Source: Elusimicrobiota bacterium (GTDB lineage: Bacteria > Elusimicrobiota > Elusimicrobia > UBA1565 > UBA9628). Taken from it: a DNA stretch of 64,000 bases. Each line of letters starts with the position of its first letter. Position 1 is the first letter of the stretch. The DNA lies in NCBI GenBank assembly GCA_027371715.1, contig DAHXMM010000003.1, positions 30,758 through 94,757 of the forward strand, read 5' to 3'. Shown here piece after piece: positions 14,337 through 62,435 of the stretch. The position numbers were made by a program, and so were the translations under genes. The notes below the pieces were generated by a model. The model searched no databases and was not told the origin of the DNA. It saw nothing but the letters and a program-made list of their open reading frames with translations.

Positions 14337-14692
14337 GGGGGTGAATTAGGTTCGACAGGAGTGGACGGACCCTCGGTCGCAGGCCCTGGAAGGTCTGAGC
14401 CAGGATAAAATCAGGCCAAAAAAAATAAAAGCCAACACACAGCTGGCTTGGGCCACCGCCTAATCCGCGGTTGACCTACGTCGGTCCCTGACGCCCGCTA
14501 GGGGAGTTCCGACGTCATGAGCGGGATGCAGGTCTTTCTTGCTTTTTCCGTCGAGAGGGCCTAAAGACACAACGGAGATAGTTTGGGGATACTCGTTCGG
14601 CTGTTTTCCCCGAATGAAACTAAAGCCGGACTAAGCCTGTAGTGACCTGGGTCGGCCTCTTTTGGACGCGGGTGCGATTCCCGCCACCTCCA
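14337..14692 (+). ncRNA. ssrA: tmRNA (transfer-messenger RNA)
   Basis: The 5' end GGGGGUGAAUUAGGUUCGACAGG pairs with the 3' end ...GGACGCGGGUGCGAUUCCCGCCACCUCCA. This gives an acceptor stem with a G3:U pair, a T-arm and a discriminator A. An internal tag-like frame runs GCC AAC ACA CAG CTG GCT TGG GCC ACC GCC TAA (14431-14463). A T-run follows, and CCA is not encoded. Confidence 0.9.
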
Positions 14693-14721
14693 CGGTTTTT
14701 TTGTTTTTTTAGATAAACTCA

Positions 14722-16035
14722 ATGCCCTCTCGCACGCTAACCTTGACGCTCTCAGGCTTGGCTTTTGTCATCCTCGCCGCTGCTTCCGTTTCCGACTCGC
14801 ACCTAGCCCCTATTTTATTTCCCCTTTATGGATTTATTTTTTTATGGATGGGGCTTCGACAAGAGAGAGAGTTGCCGTTCGTATTTCTTTTTTTAGTTTC
14901 GGTCTCAGCGCTTCTTTCGGCCTCACGTCTTAAATCGCCCTGGAACCGCGAAATTTTCCTTGAGCTGGGGGCTTTGTGGCTTTTTCAGTTTTCCTGGGGC
15001 GTCTATCAAAACACGATTCTGGGTTCTCGCCGGGAACGCGAGATCAGAGTCAACGCCCTTCGTCTTAAAATCTCAGAAGAAGAAAAAGACGTCGAATATT
15101 ACAAGGCTTATCGAACGAAGGCCTTATCTCAAATTCAAAGTTCCCAAAACCTCACCGCCAGCGCCAAAAGTCTCGCCAATACTCTTTCGGCCTCCGAGGT
15201 TCACGATCGTTTGATTTCTATTCTCTCTTCTCGCTTTCCCTCGGCTCAAGTTGAAATTGTCGCTTCTCCCGGACAAGACCCGCTTCTCAATTTCGCCCAA
15301 ACCAGAAACGCCCCGACTCTGATCCGGGACGCTTGGGCAGACAAACGCTTTCACGAACTCTTGTCTCCTTACCGGTCCGGGATCTGTATTCCGCTTAAGG
15401 TCATGCGCCAGCCCGCGGGTTTTCTTAAAATTACCTCCAAAGAATCCGACGCTTTTGGGGCCGAAGAAGTAAAAGCCGCCGAGCTTTTCGTGGCGATGGC
15501 TTCCATGAGCCTTGAAAATATTCGCTTCTATGAACAGGTTCAAGCTCAATCGGTCAGGGATCCCCTGACTCAACTCTACAGCCACCGGGCTTTTCAAACC
15601 CAACTCCAAGAAGAGCTTCTGCGCGCCGGACGCAGCCAAACGCCCCTTTCTTTAATCATGATGGATATTGACCATTTTAAGTCTTATAACGACCGCTACG
15701 GCCACCCGGCCGGGGATTCCCTTCTTAAAACCGTTTCCGCTATTCTCAATTCTTTCGCTCGGCCCGTAGATTTCGCGGCCCGCTACGGGGGCGAGGAATT
15801 CTGCCTCATTTTGCCTAATTTTGTGCGCACGGAAGCCGTCGAAATCGCCAATCGCTTGAGGGTTCGGGTCGCCGCCCAACCCTTTTTCTTTAACGGCGAA
15901 AAAACTTCCGTGACCATAAGCCTCGGGGTCGCGAGCTTTCCGCAAGACGCGACCACCGCCAGCCAAATTATCCGCGTTGCCGATGAAAGACTCTATCAAG
16001 CCAAACACGGCGGGCGCAACCAGGTGGTGGGATGA
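14722..16035 (+). CDS. membrane-anchored GAF-GGDEF diguanylate cyclase
   Basis: N-terminal TM helices and a central GAF-like region. The C-terminal GGDEF domain shows DIDHFKSYNDRYGHPAGD and RYGGEEF. Confidence 0.85.
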   Translation: MPSRTLTLTLSGLAFVILAAASVSDSHLAPILFPLYGFIFLWMGLRQERELPFVFLFLVSVSALLSASRLKSPWNREIFLELGALWLFQFSWGVYQNTILGSRREREIRVNALRLKISEEEKDVEYYKAYRTKALSQIQSSQNLTASAKSLANTLSASEVHDRLISILSSRFPSAQVEIVASPGQDPLLNFAQTRNAPTLIRDAWADKRFHELLSPYRSGICIPLKVMRQPAGFLKITSKESDAFGAEEVKAAELFVAMASMSLENIRFYEQVQAQSVRDPLTQLYSHRAFQTQLQEELLRAGRSQTPLSLIMMDIDHFKSYNDRYGHPAGDSLLKTVSAILNSFARPVDFAARYGGEEFCLILPNFVRTEAVEIANRLRVRVAAQPFFFNGEKTSVTISLGVASFPQDATTASQIIRVADERLYQAKHGGRNQVVG

Positions 16036-17324
16036 ATTGGGTTTTTCCGTTTCTTTGCGCTTCCCCGGCTTTAATTTTCTGGAGCGCAAGGTTTTCCCAA
16101 AAACGTTTTCTCTGGGGCATTTTGGGATTTATTTTTTTCCTGGGCGCCCTCACCGCACTGACCTCTCCGCTTAATCTCAAAGAGACGGCCTTGACCTGCG
16201 GGTTCTGGTCAAGCGTGGCTTCTTTTTGGGCTTATACGGAATACGCCAAGGATCAGAAAAAAGACGCCGGCTCCAAGGCTTCCTTGCAAGAATTGATAGC
16301 AAAATCCGATGAAATTTCCAATCATCTTTCGGAACTTAAACTCGAAAGCGTCAAAATTGAACGCGAGCAAAAAAAGACCTTGGCCCTTTACGGGGCGGTC
16401 AAAAGCCTCGCCCAAGCCTTGGGATGGGAAGACACCAAGCCCATTCTTGAGTCGGCGGTCGATCAATATCTGGGGGCGACGGCCTATTCATTTTACGTGA
16501 GTTCTTCAAGCGGAAACGCCCATTTCGACTCTCTCTTATATCGCGGCCTTCACGATTCTCCCGGCTCTTCCGCCGCATCTCTCATGAAATGCCTCGAACA
16601 AAACTCTCTCTCCTATCGCCAAGCGTGCTTAATCCATTCTCCGGAAGAGGCGATAGTGACCCCCTTTGAAGACAACGGCGAAGTTTTAGGTCTTTTTTAC
16701 GCCAAAGTTCCTCATGGCTCCAATTCAGATGAGTTCTTAAAAAACTCAAAAATTTTCGCCGGAGAAATTGCCTTCGCTTTTAGAAGACTCAAGCTCTTTC
16801 AAGACGTGGAGAACCTCTCCCGCATTGACGGCCTGACCGGAGCGCATCGCCGGGGAGAATTCGAAGAAAGGCTCCGCCATGAAATCGTCCGCGCGCGGAC
16901 CTTTAAAACCACGCTTGGAATTCTTATGCTCGATATCGACCACTTTAAAAAACTTAACGATCGCTACGGCCACCCTTTCGGAGACCAGGTCTTGAAAAAA
17001 GTCGGCGAAATTTTAAACGCCTCAGTCTATGAAACCGACTTCGTCGCCCGCTACGGCGGAGAAGAATTCGTCGTCATCTTGCCGCGCGCGGAACCCGCTG
17101 GAGCCCTTAGAAAGGCCGAAGCGATACGCGCCGCGATAGAGGCCGAAAAATTTTCCATCGCTTTTGAAACAATTTCAATTTCGGTTTCTATTGGAATGTC
17201 TCATTTTCCAAGAGACGCCTCCGCTCCAGAAACCCTGGTTCAGGAAGCTGATCGCGCCCTTTACGCGGCAAAAGACCAAGGGAGAAACCAAGTCGTAGAC
17301 GCAAGCCAGGTCAAAAAATCGTAA
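16032..17324 (+). CDS. membrane-anchored GGDEF diguanylate cyclase (second, tandem)
   Basis: ATGA overlap with the previous gene. TM N-terminus and GGDEF domain (DIDHFKKLNDRYGHPFGD, RYGGEEF). Confidence 0.85.
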   Translation: MNWVFPFLCASPALIFWSARFSQKRFLWGILGFIFFLGALTALTSPLNLKETALTCGFWSSVASFWAYTEYAKDQKKDAGSKASLQELIAKSDEISNHLSELKLESVKIEREQKKTLALYGAVKSLAQALGWEDTKPILESAVDQYLGATAYSFYVSSSSGNAHFDSLLYRGLHDSPGSSAASLMKCLEQNSLSYRQACLIHSPEEAIVTPFEDNGEVLGLFYAKVPHGSNSDEFLKNSKIFAGEIAFAFRRLKLFQDVENLSRIDGLTGAHRRGEFEERLRHEIVRARTFKTTLGILMLDIDHFKKLNDRYGHPFGDQVLKKVGEILNASVYETDFVARYGGEEFVVILPRAEPAGALRKAEAIRAAIEAEKFSIAFETISISVSIGMSHFPRDASAPETLVQEADRALYAAKDQGRNQVVDASQVKKS

Positions 17325-25776: not shown

Positions 25777-28199
25777 GACAACACCGTCCTCTGCCAGGCG
25801 GCTTTAAAAGGGGCCGTCGACTCTTCAAATAAAACTAAGCCGTCAAGGCCGATAATTTTGATGATCGGATTGGCGATACTTGAGCCCACACGCTTAACGC
25901 AAGAACCCTTGACACATTTGAGAAAAGCGGCTTCGTGTTCGGGTTTTACCTCAAGCAGGATACGACTAGGAGTTTCGGAAAACAACAAAACTTCAGCCGA
26001 ATAAATCGGTTTTTGCTTGGGAAGAGCGTCCAAATCAATCATCGCCCCAAATTCTCCCGAAAAAGCCATTTCGGCCACCGCCGTCAAAAGCCCGCCTTCC
26101 GACAAATCATGAGCGGAGGCAACCAAGCCCTTTGACATCGCCTGATAGACCGCGGCAAAATTTCTTCTCGCACACCGAGCATCTACGCGCGGAACCGCTC
26201 CGCCAGCAAGGCCGTTAATTTCATGATAAAGCGAGCCTCCCATGTCTTCCCCGGTCTGACCAACCAGATAAAGGGAATTTCCTGGTCCTTTCATATCCAT
26301 CGTGACGGCTTTTTCAATATTGGGAACCGGCGCAATGGCGGAAATTAAAAGAGTGCCGGGAATAGAAACCATTTTTCCGGAAGCGTCTTTTGACTCGTTA
26401 TAAAGACTGTCTTTTCCAGAAATAAAAGGAATTTGAAATCCCAAGGAAGCGTCACGGCACCCCATGGCGGCTTTGACCAAGGAACCAAGAACTTGCGGGT
26501 TTTCGGGATTCCCCCAACAGAAGTTGTCCAAGAAAGCGGCCCGGGAAATATCGGCGCCCACGCACAGAATATTGCGAAGGGCTTCATCCGCGCACAACCA
26601 CGCCATTTGATAAGGATCTAATTTCCCGGAAGCGGGGTTAAGCCCGTGACCCACGGCAAAACCGGATAAATCCGAAACGTCTTTGGTCGCGGCTTGCGGC
26701 CAGATGACCGAAGCGTCCCCGGGACCGTCGTGGCGAGTTCCCTGAAGAGGCTTAATCACGGTCCCCCCTTGGACTTCATGGTCGTATTGCCGAATCAGCC
26801 ATTCACGGCTACAAACATTGAGATGAGACAAAATGTTTTTGAGATTTTCCGCAAGAGATTTTTTCGGGAGAGCGCGAGACTCATTCCCTTTGGGCGGAAT
26901 ATAGACGGCCTTTTTTTCCTCGACAGGAATCCCGTTACTGATAAATTTAAGCGAAAGATTAATGAGCGGGCGGCCATTCCATAAAACCTCAATGCGACCG
27001 GTCTTAACAAATTCCCCGACCACTCGGCTTTCTACTCCTTCATCCGCAAAAACTTTTTCAAAGGCTTTTAAGTTCGACGGCGGAACGGCAAAAACCATCC
27101 GTTCCTGGGATTCTGAAACCCAAATTTCCCACGGCTCCATATCAGACGCCTTGAGGCTTTCTTTTTCCAGTTGAACGCGAGCGCCCACAATGTCGGCCAT
27201 TTCAGTGATGGCTGAGGAAAGGCCTCCCGCCCCGCAATCAGTGACGGAATGATAGAGCTTCTTATCCCGGGCATTGAGCAGAGCTTCCATCACGCGCTTC
27301 TCATTGAGGGGATGCCCGATTTGGACCGCCGTTGAGTGATCATCTCCGTTTAAATTAGCGGAAGAAAAAGTGGCCCCGTGAAGCCCGTCTTTTCCAGTCA
27401 GTCCGCCGGCAACCACGATTAAATCTCCCGGTCGAATTTCTTTTTTCACGGCCTTCGCCGGAAGAACTCCGACGCTCCCGACAAAAACCAAGGGGTTTAA
27501 AGCGTATCCCTCGTCAAAGTAAAGCCCTCCCGCCGCAGTCGGAATTCCCATTCGGTTGCCATAATCTCTAACCCCGGCGATAAGACCCCTCAAAATTCTT
27601 TCCGGAGAAAGCGCCTTGGGAGGCAAGGATAATTTCTTATCCGGAGGAGCGACGCAAAAAATATCCGTTGATAAAACGGGCTTGGCCCCCAGCCCCGCGG
27701 CTAAAACGTCTCGAATGACGCCCCCAAGACCGGTTTCGGCGCCGCCTTTGGGCTCGATCGCGCAGGGGTGGTTATGGGTCTCCACTTTAAAAGCTAAAGC
27801 CCACTGCCCTTTTTTCCCAAAACTGACAATCCCCGCGTTGTCTTTAAAAACAGATAAACACCAAGGCTTTTTTGTTTGGCGGGTCGCGCGCGCGATAGTC
27901 TCTTCAAAAAGATTTTTAATCAAAACGGTTTTGGAACCTTCTTGATAACGGATGGGAGATTTAAAGGTCTTATGCCGACAATGTTCCGACCAACTTTGGG
28001 CGACGGTCTCAATTTCCGCGCGCGTGGGATTTCGTTTTAGGGATCGGAAATAGGCTTGGACGGCGAGAATTTCCTTTTCATTTAAAGACCATAGATTTTG
28101 AGCGCTCAGATTCTTTAATTCCTTGATCCCCAGCGAATTGAAATCGGATAAGACCTGCACAGGAAGAGTTGGATTTTCTATTTTTTCGGTCATGAACAA
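25773..28199 (-). CDS. purL: phosphoribosylformylglycinamidine synthase subunit PurL
   Basis: WSEHCRHKTF, ETHNHP and duplicated AIR-synthase-like domains. It overlaps both purS and purQ. Confidence 0.9.
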   Translation of the reverse strand: MFMTEKIENPTLPVQVLSDFNSLGIKELKNLSAQNLWSLNEKEILAVQAYFRSLKRNPTRAEIETVAQSWSEHCRHKTFKSPIRYQEGSKTVLIKNLFEETIARATRQTKKPWCLSVFKDNAGIVSFGKKGQWALAFKVETHNHPCAIEPKGGAETGLGGVIRDVLAAGLGAKPVLSTDIFCVAPPDKKLSLPPKALSPERILRGLIAGVRDYGNRMGIPTAAGGLYFDEGYALNPLVFVGSVGVLPAKAVKKEIRPGDLIVVAGGLTGKDGLHGATFSSANLNGDDHSTAVQIGHPLNEKRVMEALLNARDKKLYHSVTDCGAGGLSSAITEMADIVGARVQLEKESLKASDMEPWEIWVSESQERMVFAVPPSNLKAFEKVFADEGVESRVVGEFVKTGRIEVLWNGRPLINLSLKFISNGIPVEEKKAVYIPPKGNESRALPKKSLAENLKNILSHLNVCSREWLIRQYDHEVQGGTVIKPLQGTRHDGPGDASVIWPQAATKDVSDLSGFAVGHGLNPASGKLDPYQMAWLCADEALRNILCVGADISRAAFLDNFCWGNPENPQVLGSLVKAAMGCRDASLGFQIPFISGKDSLYNESKDASGKMVSIPGTLLISAIAPVPNIEKAVTMDMKGPGNSLYLVGQTGEDMGGSLYHEINGLAGGAVPRVDARCARRNFAAVYQAMSKGLVASAHDLSEGGLLTAVAEMAFSGEFGAMIDLDALPKQKPIYSAEVLLFSETPSRILLEVKPEHEAAFLKCVKGSCVKRVGSSIANPIIKIIGLDGLVLFEESTAPFKAAWQRTVLS

Positions 28200-28669
28200 G
28201 CCGTAATTGAATAAAGATGGATGATGGGATTTAAAAGCGAGCGGACAGCGGAGGATTCAATCTGGGGTTTGCCGCATTTAGATTCAATTTTGTAAATGGA
28301 GGCAATTCGAATAAAATCCGGAGCTGGAAAGCCCATCTCAGTCATCGCATTTTTCATGGTATCGGCCTCCGGATCTAAAACCGTGGGTTTCAGTCTCACT
28401 TCCACCCTCCAAAAAGGCCCCTGGGTCGAGGGTGGCTGGGACAAAACCCGAAAATCCTCGGTAATCGGATCGCAAAGAAGATCCCGGCTCAAGCGATTAA
28501 TGTGGGCGGCGGTGAAACTGCCCCGAATTTCATAAAGACGGCTTTTGCGAACCTTAGACACCGTTGGCGCTCCGGAAGATTTTAAAACGACAGCCAGAGA
28601 CGAGGATTCCGCGTCTCCGTATTCCGATTTAAGCGAAACCTCTATTCTATGCGTCGAAGCCGCAATCAT
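28190..28669 (-). CDS. purS: tandem (double-domain) PurS
   Basis: Two PurS-like halves. The first is IEVSLKSEYGDAE...LLCDPITEDFRV. The second is VEVRLKPTVLDPEADTMKNAMTEMGF...LLNPIIHLYSI. Confidence 0.75.
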   Translation of the reverse strand: MIAASTHRIEVSLKSEYGDAESSSLAVVLKSSGAPTVSKVRKSRLYEIRGSFTAAHINRLSRDLLCDPITEDFRVLSQPPSTQGPFWRVEVRLKPTVLDPEADTMKNAMTEMGFPAPDFIRIASIYKIESKCGKPQIESSAVRSLLNPIIHLYSITACS

Positions 28670-28740
28670 TAGTCCCTCTCCTTATAAAATTTCAGGGACG
28701 GGACAATGCCGCCCTTATGGTTTATTGGAAGAGGCATTAG
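28667..28740 (-). other. conserved junction element, copy A (22-codon mini-ORF 28737..28669: MPLPINHKGGIVPSLKFYKERD)
   Basis: On the minus strand, TAATG joins the purC stop to the mini-ORF start, and TAATG joins the mini-ORF stop to the purS start. The core GGGCGGCATTGTCCC is shared with copies B and C. Confidence 0.55.
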
Positions 28741-29636
28741 GCTTTTAACATTTTTAAAAATTGAAGATATCGGCTGCGCGTCTGGTCAACAATTTCTTTT
28801 GGGAGAGCCGGGGGCGCCGAATTTTTATCCCAACCCGTCTGTTCCAAATAATCCCGCACGAACTGTTTGTCAAAACTCGCCGGAGAAAAACCCGGGCGAT
28901 AAGAAGCCGCATCCCAAAAACGGGAAGAATCCGGGGTGAGTATTTCGTCAATGAGGCGGAGTTCAGAACCGACAAACCCAAACTCCAGCTTCGTATCCGC
29001 CAAAATGATTCCGCGAAGACGGCAATAGGCAGCCGCAAACTCATAAATTTTGAGCGTCGCTTCTTTTAGCCTGACGGCAATATCCGCCCCCACAAGGGAT
29101 TTAAGCTTTTCAAAAGAAATATTTTGGTCATGGCCCGCATCGGCCTTGGTCGAGGGGGTGAAAAGAGGGCGCGGAAGTTGAGAAGCTTCAACGAGCCCTT
29201 CCGGCAAAAATTCACCGCAAACGGAACGTGATTTTTTATATTCCTTAAAACCCGTGCCGGCCAAATATCCCCGCGCAATACATTCGGCATCCACGCGCCG
29301 GGCTTTTTTAACCAACATCGTTCGTCCTTCCAAATCGTCCCAGGGAGCCCGAACCGAAGACGGCAATAGTCTCCGAATTTCCTTTATATCAGCCGTGATC
29401 AGGTGATTAGGAATGATTTTTTTGGTCAGGTCAAACCACAAAAGGCTGGCTTCCGTCAAAATTTTTCCTTTATCGGGAACCTCGGTCTCTAAAACCCAGT
29501 CGAAAGCCGACAGGCGATCGGTCGAAACAATCAAAAGATTGTCGCCTAAATCATAAACATCCCGAACTTTGCCCTTTCTCAAAAGGGGAATCCCCATTAC
29601 TTCTAATTCGAGAGCGCTCAAATTGTTCATTCCCAT
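28737..29636 (-). CDS. purC: phosphoribosylaminoimidazole-succinocarboxamide synthase
   Basis: GKVRDVYDLGD, STDRLSAFD and LADTKLEFG motifs. Confidence 0.9.
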   Translation of the reverse strand: MGMNNLSALELEVMGIPLLRKGKVRDVYDLGDNLLIVSTDRLSAFDWVLETEVPDKGKILTEASLLWFDLTKKIIPNHLITADIKEIRRLLPSSVRAPWDDLEGRTMLVKKARRVDAECIARGYLAGTGFKEYKKSRSVCGEFLPEGLVEASQLPRPLFTPSTKADAGHDQNISFEKLKSLVGADIAVRLKEATLKIYEFAAAYCRLRGIILADTKLEFGFVGSELRLIDEILTPDSSRFWDAASYRPGFSPASFDKQFVRDYLEQTGWDKNSAPPALPKEIVDQTRSRYLQFLKMLKA

Positions 29637-34812: not shown

Positions 34813-35712
34813 ATGCCTATTCCTAATTACCAGCCCTGCATGCTGCCTCTCCTGGAATTTTATTCGGATAATAAAGAGCATTCAGCTCATGAAGCCTGTG
34901 CCCAACTTGCGAAAAAGTTTCAATTAACCGGCGCTGAGAGACAAACGCTGTTGCCTAGCGGTCAACAAACGGTTTTTGAAAATAGAGTTGGATGGGCTCG
35001 AACCTATTTAAAAAAGTCAGGGCTCATTGACGCTCCTAAACGAGGCGTTAATAAAATTACCTCCCGAGGCCTGGAGGTCTTGCAAAAAAATCCGACCTCT
35101 ATTGATGTACGGTTTCTTGAACAATTCCAGGAATTCAAGGAATTTAGGGATTTACGGAGAAATGACGGAGAAACTGAGCCCGAGAACGGCGATGATACGC
35201 CGGAAGAGTTACTCGAACGAGCGCATCAAACGCTCCAATCTTCCATTCTCACCGACTTACTCCAGCGGCTTAAGGCGTGTTCCCCATCTTTTTTCGAGAA
35301 AATTGTCGTTGAGGTAATTTTAAAAATGGGTTATGGCGGCAGCAGGCAGGATGCGGGTAAAGCCATAGGCCAAACCGGAGACGGCGGCATTGATGGAATT
35401 ATTAAACAAGATAAACTAGGCCTCGATGCGATCTATATTCAAGCGAAGAAATGGGAAAGCGTCGTTGGCAGACCTGAAATTCAAAAATTTGTCGGCGCAT
35501 TGACCGGTCAACGCGCCAGAAAAGGCGTTTTTATAACGACTTCTGATTTTTCCTCCGGGGCAAAAGATTATGCGTCTCAAATCGACACGAAGGTTATCCT
35601 TGTGGATGGGAAAATGTTGGCACGGTTGATGTTGGAACATAATGTCGGAGTATCGCTCGTCAGCACTTACGCCGTTAAAAAAATCGATTCCGATTATTTC
35701 TCGGAAGAATAG
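34813..35712 (+). CDS. mrr: Mrr-family type IV restriction endonuclease
   Basis: N-terminal Mrr_N winged helix (MPIPNYQPCMLPLLEF...). The C-terminal PD-(D/E)xK core is GDGGIDGIIKQDKLGLDAIYIQAKKW. Confidence 0.85.
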   Translation: MPIPNYQPCMLPLLEFYSDNKEHSAHEACAQLAKKFQLTGAERQTLLPSGQQTVFENRVGWARTYLKKSGLIDAPKRGVNKITSRGLEVLQKNPTSIDVRFLEQFQEFKEFRDLRRNDGETEPENGDDTPEELLERAHQTLQSSILTDLLQRLKACSPSFFEKIVVEVILKMGYGGSRQDAGKAIGQTGDGGIDGIIKQDKLGLDAIYIQAKKWESVVGRPEIQKFVGALTGQRARKGVFITTSDFSSGAKDYASQIDTKVILVDGKMLARLMLEHNVGVSLVSTYAVKKIDSDYFSEE

Positions 35713-42786: not shown

Positions 42787-43212
42787 ATGAGCTCACCGTT
42801 AATTTCTTTTAGTTGCCGAATTTACGGGATTCTAGTTGAAGACGGAAAAGTTTTAATGACGCGAAGCCGTTTTATCGACCGCGAGTTCGTCAATTTTCCC
42901 GGGGGCGGGATAGAAATTGGAGAAGCCCCCCAAGACGCCTTGATTCGAGAATACCAAGAAGAAACCGGTTTATCCATTAAGATTAAAAAAATTATTTTCT
43001 CCAGCCAGAAACTCCATCTCTCCACTCAAAGACCGATTCAAATCGTCAGTTCTTTCTGGCGGGTGGAAAAAACCGGAGGAACGCTCAAGGAAAACGGAAA
43101 TGACGACGACGTCCTTAAGCTTTTCTGGGCCGAACTCTCCGCGATCCCAAAAGGGGAGATGTTTTCTTCCGATCGGGAATTTGCCGATCTTCTGCCAAGT
43201 CTCTTATTTTAA
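42787..43212 (+). CDS. NUDIX hydrolase
   Basis: Nudix box GGGIEIGEAPQDALIREYQEETGL. Start chosen at MSSPLISF. Confidence 0.75.
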   Translation: MSSPLISFSCRIYGILVEDGKVLMTRSRFIDREFVNFPGGGIEIGEAPQDALIREYQEETGLSIKIKKIIFSSQKLHLSTQRPIQIVSSFWRVEKTGGTLKENGNDDDVLKLFWAELSAIPKGEMFSSDREFADLLPSLLF

Positions 43213-43549
43213 GAACGTCCTGGGCGATTTGGTTTTTCAAATCTTGAAGAGAGGCAAATTTTTTTTGGCCGCGAATTTTCTTAAGCAAAGACACCTTGAG
43301 TTTTGTTCCATAAAGGTTCCCTTTAAACCCAGGGATATGAACCTCAAAAACGCGGCGGCTCCCGTTGACGGTCGGGCGAGTCCCCACGCTCACGGCCGCA
43401 AGCCGAACGCCCAATTTCACACTGTCAACTTTCCCAGCATAAACCCCGTCTTTGGGAAAGACGGCGGGATCTATTTCAAGATTAGCGGTCGGATATCCGA
43501 GTTTTCTTCCAATCTTATCTCCGGAAACGACTCGCCCGCAATAAAGCAT
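43115..43549 (-). CDS. riboflavin kinase (monofunctional, RibF C-terminal domain only)
   Basis: GRVVSGDKIGRKLGYPTANL, GVYAGKV, VGTRPT and FEVHIPGFKGNLYG motifs. There is no FMN adenylyltransferase domain. Confidence 0.8.
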   Translation of the reverse strand: MLYCGRVVSGDKIGRKLGYPTANLEIDPAVFPKDGVYAGKVDSVKLGVRLAAVSVGTRPTVNGSRRVFEVHIPGFKGNLYGTKLKVSLLKKIRGQKKFASLQDLKNQIAQDVLKIRDLAEDRQIPDRKKTSPLLGSRRVRPRKA

Positions 43550-43620
43550 CAGTCCCGCTCCTCATAAAATTCTAAGGTCGGGACAATGCCGCCCTTACAA
43601 TTCCTGAAAGGAGGCATCAG
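43547..43620 (-). other. conserved junction element, copy B (22-codon mini-ORF 43617..43549: MPPFRNCKGGIVPTLEFYEERD)
   Basis: TGATG joins the truB stop to the mini-ORF start, and TGATG joins the mini-ORF stop to the riboflavin-kinase start. The length and core are the same as copy A. Confidence 0.55.
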
Positions 43621-44357
43621 GCGCTTTTTATTTTCGAGGCGAATTGAAAAAGCCTCATCGTCCCCTCTTCGAGGAGATTTTTGATGTCTTCCGTCTTAAA
43701 CCCCTTAAGGGACTCCAAATTAATGGACTCATCCACGGAAAAAGGCCCGATTTTTTCTCTTCTGAGCGTCTGAACGACCGCCCCGCACCCTAATTTGCTC
43801 CCCACCCCTTCGGCCAAGGCGCGGACATAGGTGCCGCTCGAACAGAAAAGGCGGTTTTCGATTTCTCCCGTATGCGGGTCGTAATTTAAGGCTTCCCAAC
43901 GGTAAACCGTTGATTTTCTCGGCTTCTCGGGAACGCTGATTCCCTTGCGGGCGTAATGATAAAGCGGTTTCCCTTTGTGCTTGACGGCCGAAAAAACGGG
44001 CGCGGGAAGAGAAATTTCTCCCAAATATTGATCGAAGCCGGCCTGAATATCGGATAATCTCAGTTCCGGAACCGGACGCTTTTCGAGAACCTTTCCCGTA
44101 ATATCGCCCGAATCGGTTACAACTCCCAGCTTAATCGTTCCATAATAGACCTTATCCAAGCCTTGCATGTGAGCCTGAAGTTTCCGCGTGCGACCGGCTA
44201 AAATAATTAAAAGCCCCGTGGCCAACGGATCCAAGGTCCCGCAATGCCCTGCTTTTTCGTGGGCCGGCAAAAAACGCCGAAAGGCGTTAACCGCGTCATG
44301 AGAAGTCCAGCCGGTCGGCTTGTCGAACAAAATCATTCCGGCAAGTTCGGGCTTCAT
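43617..44357 (-). CDS. truB: tRNA pseudouridine(55) synthase
   Basis: GHCGTLDPLATGLLII (catalytic Asp motif). Confidence 0.9.
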   Translation of the reverse strand: MKPELAGMILFDKPTGWTSHDAVNAFRRFLPAHEKAGHCGTLDPLATGLLIILAGRTRKLQAHMQGLDKVYYGTIKLGVVTDSGDITGKVLEKRPVPELRLSDIQAGFDQYLGEISLPAPVFSAVKHKGKPLYHYARKGISVPEKPRKSTVYRWEALNYDPHTGEIENRLFCSSGTYVRALAEGVGSKLGCGAVVQTLRREKIGPFSVDESINLESLKGFKTEDIKNLLEEGTMRLFQFASKIKSA

Positions 44358-62284: not shown

Positions 62285-62356
62285 ATTAGTCCCTTTCATG
62301 AATAACATTAAGGTTGGGACAATGCCGCCCGTATTATTATTGGGAAAAGGCATAGG
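62284..62356 (-). other. conserved junction element, copy C (frame not preserved)
   Basis: It has the same ATGCCT...GGGCGGCATTGTCCC...GGGACTAAT architecture but is 1 nt shorter between the core and GGGACTAA. It lies in a convergent intergenic region with no downstream gene. Confidence 0.5.
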
Positions 62357-62435
62357 GACTGGCCGGATCATAACGTCATTCTTAAAGATGCTCCGGCACG
62401 CTCTCGCTTCGCGAGCGAAGGCAGTCCCTATTTCC

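Follow-up and report, generated by a model that had tools for sequence, protein, structure and literature searches.

A MIRU-like family of mobile repeats in Elusimicrobiota that probably inserts at stop/start overlaps and restores both signals

Introduction

To our knowledge, mycobacterial interspersed repetitive units (MIRUs) represent the standard, and essentially the only cited, case of a mobile repeat that survives inside operons by means of a coupling open reading frame (ORF). Here we describe a presumably unrelated repeat with the same architecture from an Elusimicrobiota bacterium (GenBank assembly GCA_027371715.1, contig DAHXMM010000003.1, positions 30,758 to 94,757 of the forward strand; this stretch of 64,000 nucleotides is called the window below). 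The repeat spans about 68 bases and occurs three times in the window, and two of its copies exactly bridge the stop codon of one gene and the start codon of the next with a mini-ORF of 22 codons. We consider it probable that these copies belong to a non-autonomous family of mobile repeats that resembles miniature inverted-repeat transposable elements (MITEs) and inhabits a small Elusimicrobiota clade, and that one subfamily inserts at stop/start overlaps and thereby restores both signals.

As summarised from Supply et al. 1997 in passages of two papers (PMC12548453; PMC3184786), MIRUs are repeats of 40-100 bp in polycistronic operons that have short direct repeats, imperfect terminal inverted repeats (TIRs) and internal GC-rich inverted repeats, carry small ORFs overlapping the adjacent genes, and show both empty and filled sites among relatives. 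The same passages interpret them as mobile elements that insert at start codons and whose ORF couples the downstream gene, with minimal effect on expression. The present family is likewise a short repeat between co-oriented operon partners, in sense orientation in 8/8 copies, with an internal ORF that overlaps the upstream stop and the downstream start at 7/7 independent junctions; it also shares with MIRUs the empty and filled sites among relatives, the short direct repeats at the ends, the imperfect TIRs, the internal GC-rich inverted repeats and the occasional tandem copies (one tandem pair, and one copy with partial neighbours). It differs from them in its host (Elusimicrobiota against Actinomycetota) and in base composition, the two being likened by architecture and not by sequence alignment. 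Further differences are the 1-nt T(A/G)ATG overlaps at both ends, as against the -4 spacing that those passages describe for MIRUs, the element's own GGAG, a sister subfamily that has no bridging ORF, and the rarity of tandem arrays (2 of ~19 loci), which are the rule at MIRU variable-number tandem-repeat (MIRU-VNTR) loci. Judged by this analogy, the mycobacterial MIRU is probably the closest known analogue, and the family appears to share its functional hallmarks, with no claim that it is a member of the MIRUs. The original prediction, made from the sequence alone, had recognised no named family. Rfam agrees with it, returning only tmRNA over the whole window at gathering thresholds and nothing overlapping the element around copy A even at E up to 10, but the MIRU precedent for exactly this architecture, as those passages give it, had been missed.

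Other described repeats share fewer of these features. Bacterial MITEs such as Correia/NEMIS, ERIC, RUP and BOX are also short, non-coding, multi-copy and co-transcribed with their neighbours, and have imperfect TIRs that fold into a long hairpin as well as short, TA-containing flanking direct repeats (PMC3184786). They are not made for bridging stop and start codons, however, they occur in both orientations, and several have an identified parent insertion sequence (IS) (PMC3184786), whereas the present element is invariably oriented like its adjacent gene, and no parent IS was found for it in the ~0.3 Mb examined. Neisseria REP2 and Borrelia IR elements carry a promoter and act as 5' expression cassettes (PMC3184786); in contrast, no promoter-like site was found in our element (scans for promoters and terminators around copies A and C returned none), and its junction copies lie inside operons. 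Rickettsia palindromic elements are, like our element, palindromic mobile repeats whose survival is tied to an open frame, but they insert within coding sequence and join the protein (PMC3184786), while the present element forms a separate mini-ORF between genes.

Three copies of the repeat in the window

The original prediction had placed three copies of the element on the minus strand, and these coordinates hold. Each copy contains the exact 15-mer core GGGCGGCATTGTCCC, which occurs three times in the window, always on the minus strand (28700-28714, 43580-43594 and 62316-62330), against a chance expectation of ~1e-4 per 128 kb for any given 15-mer.

Copy A (28667-28740, minus strand) belongs to the junction subfamily and lies at the stop-start overlap of purC, which encodes SAICAR synthetase (28737-29636, minus strand), and purS (28190-28669, minus strand), with a CTAATG direct repeat at each end (28735-28740 and 28667-28672). 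Its mini-ORF of 22 codons (28669-28737, minus strand) opens with an ATG (28735-28737) on the purC stop TAA (28737-28739) and closes with a TAA (28669-28671) on the purS ATG (28667-28669). Copy B (43547-43620, minus strand), of the same subfamily, is flanked by CTGATG on both sides, and its mini-ORF (43549-43617, minus strand) makes the same overlaps, here with TGA, at truB (43617-44357, minus strand) and the gene of a riboflavin kinase that consists of the kinase domain only (43115-43549, minus strand). All four neighbours were identified by Pfam, and the predicted bridging of stop and start codons is confirmed for both copies. The mini-ORFs would encode MPLPINHKGGIVPSLKFYKERD in copy A and MPPFRNCKGGIVPTLEFYEERD in copy B, and our recount agrees with the earlier figure of 53/69 identical positions between them.

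The invariant core of copy A (28700-28714, minus strand) provides the 3' strand of a first hairpin and the 5' strand of a second one: GGCAT (28706-28710) pairs with ATGCC (28733-28737) in hairpin 1, and GTCCC (28700-28704) with GGGAC (28672-28676) in hairpin 2. Close to the 3' end, the copy holds a motif AAGGAG (28678-28683, minus strand) that resembles Shine-Dalgarno (SD) sequences, and by alignment its GGAG ends 8 nt before the purS ATG.

Copy C (62287-62355, minus strand) belongs to an intergenic subfamily (CTA-TGCC...GGGA-CTA) and bridges no genes. It lies 80 nt past the stop codon of a PPIase gene, between this gene and a convergent LysM/FecR gene, whose stop codon is abutted by the 3' end of the copy (nhmmer 62285-62355), the CTA repeat ending 2 nt before it. 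Copy C is shorter than copies A and B by 1-2 nt, and its 5' end reads CTATG and not CTRATG. A search with an nhmmer profile, extended by ~10 kb of contig to either side of the window (~20 kb in all), gave no further copies there or in the window itself, not even degenerate ones.

A family of 22 copies

A scan of GTDB, in which each species is represented by one genome, with the core plus GGGAC as the query (20 specified bases) returned 44 loci. Real copies are found at 13 of them, all from two metagenome-assembled genomes (MAGs), JA2.bin36 with the accession JAJZCM01 and YF2.bin79 with JAKAQO01; the other loci were rejected as chance matches to the 20 specified bases. The nhmmer profile added five more, diverged copies within the real loci, which brings the family to 22 copies, of which 3 come from the window, 12 from JA2.bin36 and 7 from YF2.bin79. 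The copies stand at unrelated loci, more than 15 of which carry the same sequence, and some of them are grouped, as a pair in tandem at L017 or an inverted one at L031, while the copy at L020 has partial remnants on its flanks. JGI metagenomes scanned with two patterns (0 matches, then 15 chance matches) held no family member, IMG/VR viral contigs (exact pattern) as well as PLSDB plasmids and GenBank phages (blastn) gave no match, and we found no description of such repeats in Elusimicrobia in the literature. The distribution of the family thus looks narrow, comprising a small Elusimicrobiota clade in scans that needed a near-exact core.

Two copies in JA2.bin36 (L016 3545-3614 and 4114-4182) bracket the gene coaD, one of them reaching right up to the coaD ATG and the other beginning 3 nt past the coaD stop. 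Solo or widely spaced ends of the element were also looked for in ~0.3 Mb of these genomes, and only chance resemblances came up. One of these is the gene start ATGCCTATTCC at 34813, where the start of an ORF of 299 aa, ATGCCTATTCCTAATTAC (34813-34830, plus strand), resembles the 5' end of the element (ATGCCTATTCAAATAAAC in L044b); we judge this resemblance to be due to chance, because no other part of the element is present there.

Filled and empty sites

Contigs of relatives were reached through TruB and PurC homologues, the named ones among which assign the organism of the window to Elusimicrobiota, and the two junction sites of the window are empty in 4-7 related contigs. At truB/ribF the window reads gcCTGATG-[62 nt]-CTGATGctt, whereas the relatives show a plain CTGATG (L047, L070 and L071), CTAAtATG (L069) or TAAaATG (L045 and L046). 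The purC/purS site is filled both in the window and in JA2.bin36 (L034), as CTAATG-[62 nt]-CTAATGatt, and empty in L071, which reads tcCTAATGatt, and in L069, L070 and L072, where the two genes meet in ATGA overlaps. Since the empty hexamer sites hold the hexamer once, while in the filled sites it flanks a 62-nt insert on both sides, the element is an insertion. Of the roles that the original prediction had considered, that of a small element targeting stop-start junctions is supported by these exact CTAATG and CTGATG empty sites and by the dispersal of the copies over unrelated loci in three genomes. All T[AG]ATG junctions of long ORFs in the window are occupied, and at least 10 overlaps of the ATGA type are untouched.

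The pattern of presence does not follow relatedness. Contig L069 belongs to YF2.bin79, its PurC being also found on a 779-kb contig of that MAG, and in none of the five proteins compared is JA2.bin36 closer to the window genome than YF2.bin79, which is the closer one in four of them (92.5% identity for PurS and 91.2% for PurF, vs 85.5% and 87.9% in JA2.bin36). YF2.bin79 is nevertheless empty at both purC/purS and truB/ribF. Hence, with the closer genome empty and the more distant one filled, the purC/purS site must either have been filled twice, independently and at the same hexamer, or have been emptied once by a precise loss.

Bridging ORFs at gene junctions

Seven copies (winA, winB, L010, L013, L034, L044a and L044b) form the junction subfamily, with the signature T[AG]ATGCC...GAGGAG[AC]GGGACT[AG]ATG and identical arm lengths. 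They stand at purC/purS (twice, in orthologous positions), truB/ribF, sucC/sucD, glutamine synthetase/Mrp, bamA/ompH and fabZ/lpxA, and 7/7 have an open ORF of 22 codons, an exact bridge from stop to start and a GGAG 8 nt before the downstream ATG. Another copy, L027 at COX2/COX1, has the shorter 3' arm of the other subfamily and still bridges its genes, by an ORF of 28 codons that ends in the TGA of an ATGA. Taken together, the junction copies and L027 represent seven independent junctions, and the bridging ORF is present at 7/7; the overlaps are of the TRATG type at both ends, with ATGA at the 3' end of L027. The ORF of L031c also ends in an ATGA on the downstream start. The remaining copies lie past stop codons, before starts in divergent regions, in tandem (L017) or head to head (L031), and three intergenic copies (L005, L014 and L040b) are in frame with the downstream gene.

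All copies between co-oriented genes are in sense orientation (8 independent cases, ~0.004 by sign test), although such a bias would arise from an asymmetric target no less readily than from selection. No functional theme is shared by the flanking genes, which argues against a regulator specific for one metabolite. SD-like motifs precede 16/57 long ORFs, against a background of 10%, indicating that the organism uses SD sequences at least sometimes. The translational-coupling module proposed by the original prediction is plausible in so far as the bridging ORF is kept at every independent junction, and coupling is the likely reason why the insertions are tolerated rather than a proven function for the host.

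Hairpins and ends of the element

The consensus C-T-R-(A)-TGCCTYTTCC...ATAA...GGGCGGCATTGTCCC...CCTTAA...TRAGGARRGGGA-C-T-R has a body of 62-66 nt that forms an imperfect palindrome. Two hairpins are conserved across the family, hairpin 1 with the pairing ATGCC/GGCAT and an inner YCC/GGG stem, and hairpin 2 with GTCCC/GGGAC and an inner CCTTA/TRAGG stem, so that both pairings that had been read from the window copies (AUGCC/GGCAU and GUCCC/GGGAC) are real. This two-hairpin model pairs 93.9% of cells, compared with 35-54% when the partners are slid by 1-3 columns. The sole clear double compensatory change of the family is found in hairpin 1 of L031a (AU to GC and UA to CG), where the ATG is lost and the stem is kept. 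By contrast, the AGG/CGG change between copies A and B, which had been taken to be compensatory, does not bear this out, the column pair flanking the GTCCC/GGGAC stem being mostly mismatched across copies.

An alternative long hairpin, in which arm pairs with arm, is the minimum-free-energy (MFE) fold in 13/22 copies. As the only structure it makes the weaker model, with 80.8% of cells paired vs 93.9%, and it shows no excess over shuffles. Searched with the family profile, the reverse complement of the element gives a match over positions 7-71 (E = 3e-7), which indicates that its arms are imperfect TIRs.

Points against mobility and alternative explanations

Several observations weigh against reading the family as MITE-like mobile DNA. 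The trinucleotide CTR stands at both ends in 20/22 copies, but the identity of the flanking repeats extends over 3-14 nt: it amounts to 6 nt at both junction sites of the window and to 14 nt at fabZ/lpxA, and the repeats read CTAATA at both ends of L040a and CTGCGCCT at both ends of L031a. Two junction copies are discordant, with TAA at one end and TGA at the other. Given this variable length and these discordant ends, a simple target-site duplication of fixed length is not demonstrated; the flanking repeats fit a duplication of 3-6 nt followed by decay, or equally a site-specific or HUH-type insertion next to CTR, with the 3' CTR owned by the element. Within the ~0.3 Mb examined, neither a mobilising enzyme such as a transposase nor a full-length parent element turned up. 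The folding z-scores are modest (-1.2 to -3.7), two forms alternate in the predicted structures, and there is no significant asymmetry of folding between the sense and antisense strands (p = 0.16); with both strands folding equally and z-scores this modest, the structure is not assignable to RNA rather than to DNA. Moreover, the orthologous purC/purS copies of the window and JA2.bin36 differ at 5/73 positions only, whereas the synonymous sites of purC, purS and purL are saturated between the two genomes (pS 0.56-0.69), and paralogous copies in different genomes are equally similar (90-94%). Junk would diverge, and such near-identity thus points to constraint over nearly the whole length, which serves either mobilisation or a role at the level of the host. 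Finally, the sample is small (22 copies from 3 MAG-level genomes) and was partly picked by the exact-core search.

The strongest competitor, which we regard as possible but rather unlikely, concerns the mode of movement. The repeat might be a single-stranded-DNA hairpin element moved by an HUH enzyme and not a DDE-type MITE, that is, an element like repetitive extragenic palindromes (REP) or REPINs with their REP-associated tyrosine transposase (RAYT), or a palindrome-associated transposable element (PATE) derived from IS200/IS605. It would then insert 3' of a short, self-recognised target CTR, and the 3' CTR would be the element's own end and not a duplication. This explanation accommodates the variable length of the end-to-end match beyond CTR and the two copies with discordant TAA and TGA ends, as well as the finding of CTR as the 5' flank in 20/22 copies and of GGGA-CTR as the 3' end in 22/22. 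The two subterminal hairpins, which are the most conserved features, and the complementarity of the core GGCATT to the AATGCC that spans the junction of target and element point in the same direction. However, no Y1/HUH gene was seen in the ~0.3 Mb of these genomes examined, and the consensus has no REP head of the GTAG type. Two of the L031 copies, 60 nt apart and in opposite orientations, each follow the neighbouring gene rather than a replication strand, and both ends of copy B carry CTG, the rarer form, in agreement with the CTGATG of the empty site, which duplication fits better.

A second alternative is that the element, whatever its origin, has been domesticated as a cis-regulatory RNA and serves the host as a coupling device or switch that is gated by its structure. 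Hairpin 1 would hide the AUG of the mini-ORF, and hairpin 2, or its extension CAUUGUCCC/GGGACURAUG, would hide the downstream SD and AUG, so that translation of the downstream gene would depend strictly on that of the upstream gene or on a signal (temperature or a binding protein). The 90-94% identity of junction copies, orthologous and paralogous alike, across genomes with saturated synonymous sites would be expected of such a device, as would the two conserved hairpins with their one double compensatory change. The same is true of the MFE fold of copy B, in which the downstream AUG and SD are paired (z = -3.7), and of the SD, which is stronger in the junction subfamily (GAGGAGA) than in the intergenic copies (GAGGAAA). 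Yet the closest relative (YF2.bin79, L069) and further relatives do without the element in the same operons, no common function unites the flanking genes, and copies also occur where there is nothing to couple, at convergent gene ends and in tandem arrays. Covariation is minimal, the folding shows no strand asymmetry, and Rfam gave no match, even at E up to 10. A host-domesticated switch is thus possible but not supported, and we consider it improbable.

Of much lower probability is the third explanation, a conserved micropeptide gene in which the product of 22 aa (consensus MPxPINHKGGIVPSLKFYxERD) would be the functional entity. The idea, raised by the original prediction, is understandable from the junction copies, in which the ORF is intact and of exactly 22 codons in 7/7 cases, GGIVP is invariant and a few changes are synonymous (Leu CTG/TTA, Arg AGG/CGG and Tyr TAT/TAC). 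It does not withstand the comparison with the rest of the family, in which indels of 1-2 nt in the non-junction copies (L002, L014, L016b, L031b and L031c) cause the invariant nucleotides of the core to be read as GGIVP, AALS or GRHCP; several non-junction copies have early stops, and L031a retains hairpin 1 without the ATG. The seven junction ORFs have a pN/pS of 0.60, which does not stand out from the 0.72 and 0.89 of the off-frames, and a concatenated peptide query found no protein sharing three 5-residue words in a collection of 5.8 billion. As the indels put the core in three frames and pN/pS lies near that of the off-frames, the peptide is not under selection. We conclude from the sequences that an open, correctly phased frame is retained where it links two genes, and that the peptide sequence is not selected.

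Last, it is hardly credible that the repeat is an immobile, ancient intercistronic spacer deleted in relatives: the purC/purS copy is indeed present in two species, but the occurrence of the same sequence at more than 15 unrelated loci already contradicts this idea, at two loci relatives have nothing but the clean hexamer, the similarity ranking of five proteins disagrees with the pattern of presence, and copies are arranged in tandem and inverted.

Proposed mechanism and its implications

We thus return to the favoured explanation, a MITE-like family of which one subfamily inserts at stop/start overlaps. Insertion at the 1-nt overlap C-T-R-A-T-G of two co-transcribed genes would leave the hexamer on both sides, and with it both the upstream stop and the downstream start would be regenerated. 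A hexamer spacing of 68 nt (2 mod 3) and a stop-free frame would together yield the relay ORF of 22 codons, and the element would itself supply the ribosome-binding GGAG at the proper distance from the downstream ATG. Ribosomes ending the upstream gene would re-initiate on the overlapping AUG of the mini-ORF, which is otherwise paired in hairpin 1, and translation of the mini-ORF would melt hairpin 2, in which part of the SD is otherwise paired and, if it is extended as in the MFE fold of copy B, also the downstream AUG. After termination on UAAUG or UGAUG, the same ribosomes would re-initiate on the downstream gene. Operon coupling and stoichiometry would be kept, so that the insertion could persist, with the peptide as a by-product. 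We infer translation of the mini-ORF, the coupling mechanism and mobilisation in trans by some enzyme from the architecture of the copies.

A more far-reaching version of this mechanism is that the element finds its safe harbour by itself: the core GGCATT would pair with the C-T-R-A-T-G overlap, choosing the target as DNA and gating translation as RNA. We regard this version as speculative and quite unlikely; if true, it would mean active homing to coupled junctions and a structure-dependent relay on which the host has begun to rely, that is, targeting guided by sequence and not mere tolerance.

Altogether, our analysis describes a fresh family of MIRU-like, coupling-preserving MITEs that is presumably unrelated to MIRUs in sequence and probably represents neither a riboswitch nor a peptide gene. 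A family from a distant, uncultured phylum has come to the same solution: stop and start codons are regenerated, the filler frame is open, and the ribosome-binding site comes with the element. This points to convergent evolution and to stop/start overlaps as a safe harbour that small mobile DNA can use in general. The family is thus not a novel class of element but a clean second, convergent example of a known one, and it also lends itself as a natural system to tests of coupling constraints: in the junction subfamily the ORF is always kept, in the intergenic subfamily it is not, a contrast that could serve to gauge how strongly coupling constrains operon architecture. For genome annotation, such elements yield "intergenic" gaps of 60-70 nt and phantom ORFs of 22 codons in gene pairs that otherwise overlap.

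Neighbouring genes and minor observations

The purS gene downstream of copy A encodes a tandem fusion of 159 aa with two PurS domains, and the same form is found in the relatives L069-L072 (159-161 aa). The riboflavin kinase downstream of copy B has 144 aa, and the locus lacks the FAD-synthetase half that a typical RibF has; all relatives examined likewise have a kinase-only protein there (149-150 aa).

Directly upstream of copy C lies a segment of 76 nt (62354-62429, minus strand) that is bounded by the inverted repeats AGGGACTGCC and GGCCAGTCCCT and has a folding energy of -30 kcal/mol (z = -2.6). Some 40 nt of this segment (GCCTTC..CGCTCGCG..GAGAGCG..CATCTTT) recur upstream of copy L016a of JA2.bin36 (L016 3489-3530, plus strand), at a non-orthologous site, and the segment may be a second small repeat or part of a longer, composite form of the element. 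In the contig past the right end of the window, by the PPIase gene and copy C, a gene cluster of the kind found in mobile DNA (L073 6212-9454) comprises a phage-integrase fragment of 82 aa, an AAA_14/DUF4143 ATPase, an HNH nuclease and a metallophosphatase.

Elsewhere in the window, the tmRNA gene (Rfam RF00023, 156 bits) lies at 14337-14695 on the plus strand. The adjacent genes at 14722-16035 and 16032-17324 (plus strand) overlap each other and share stretches of 75-79% identity that encode a motif of the RYGGEEF type; they look like tandem paralogous genes for diguanylate cyclases.

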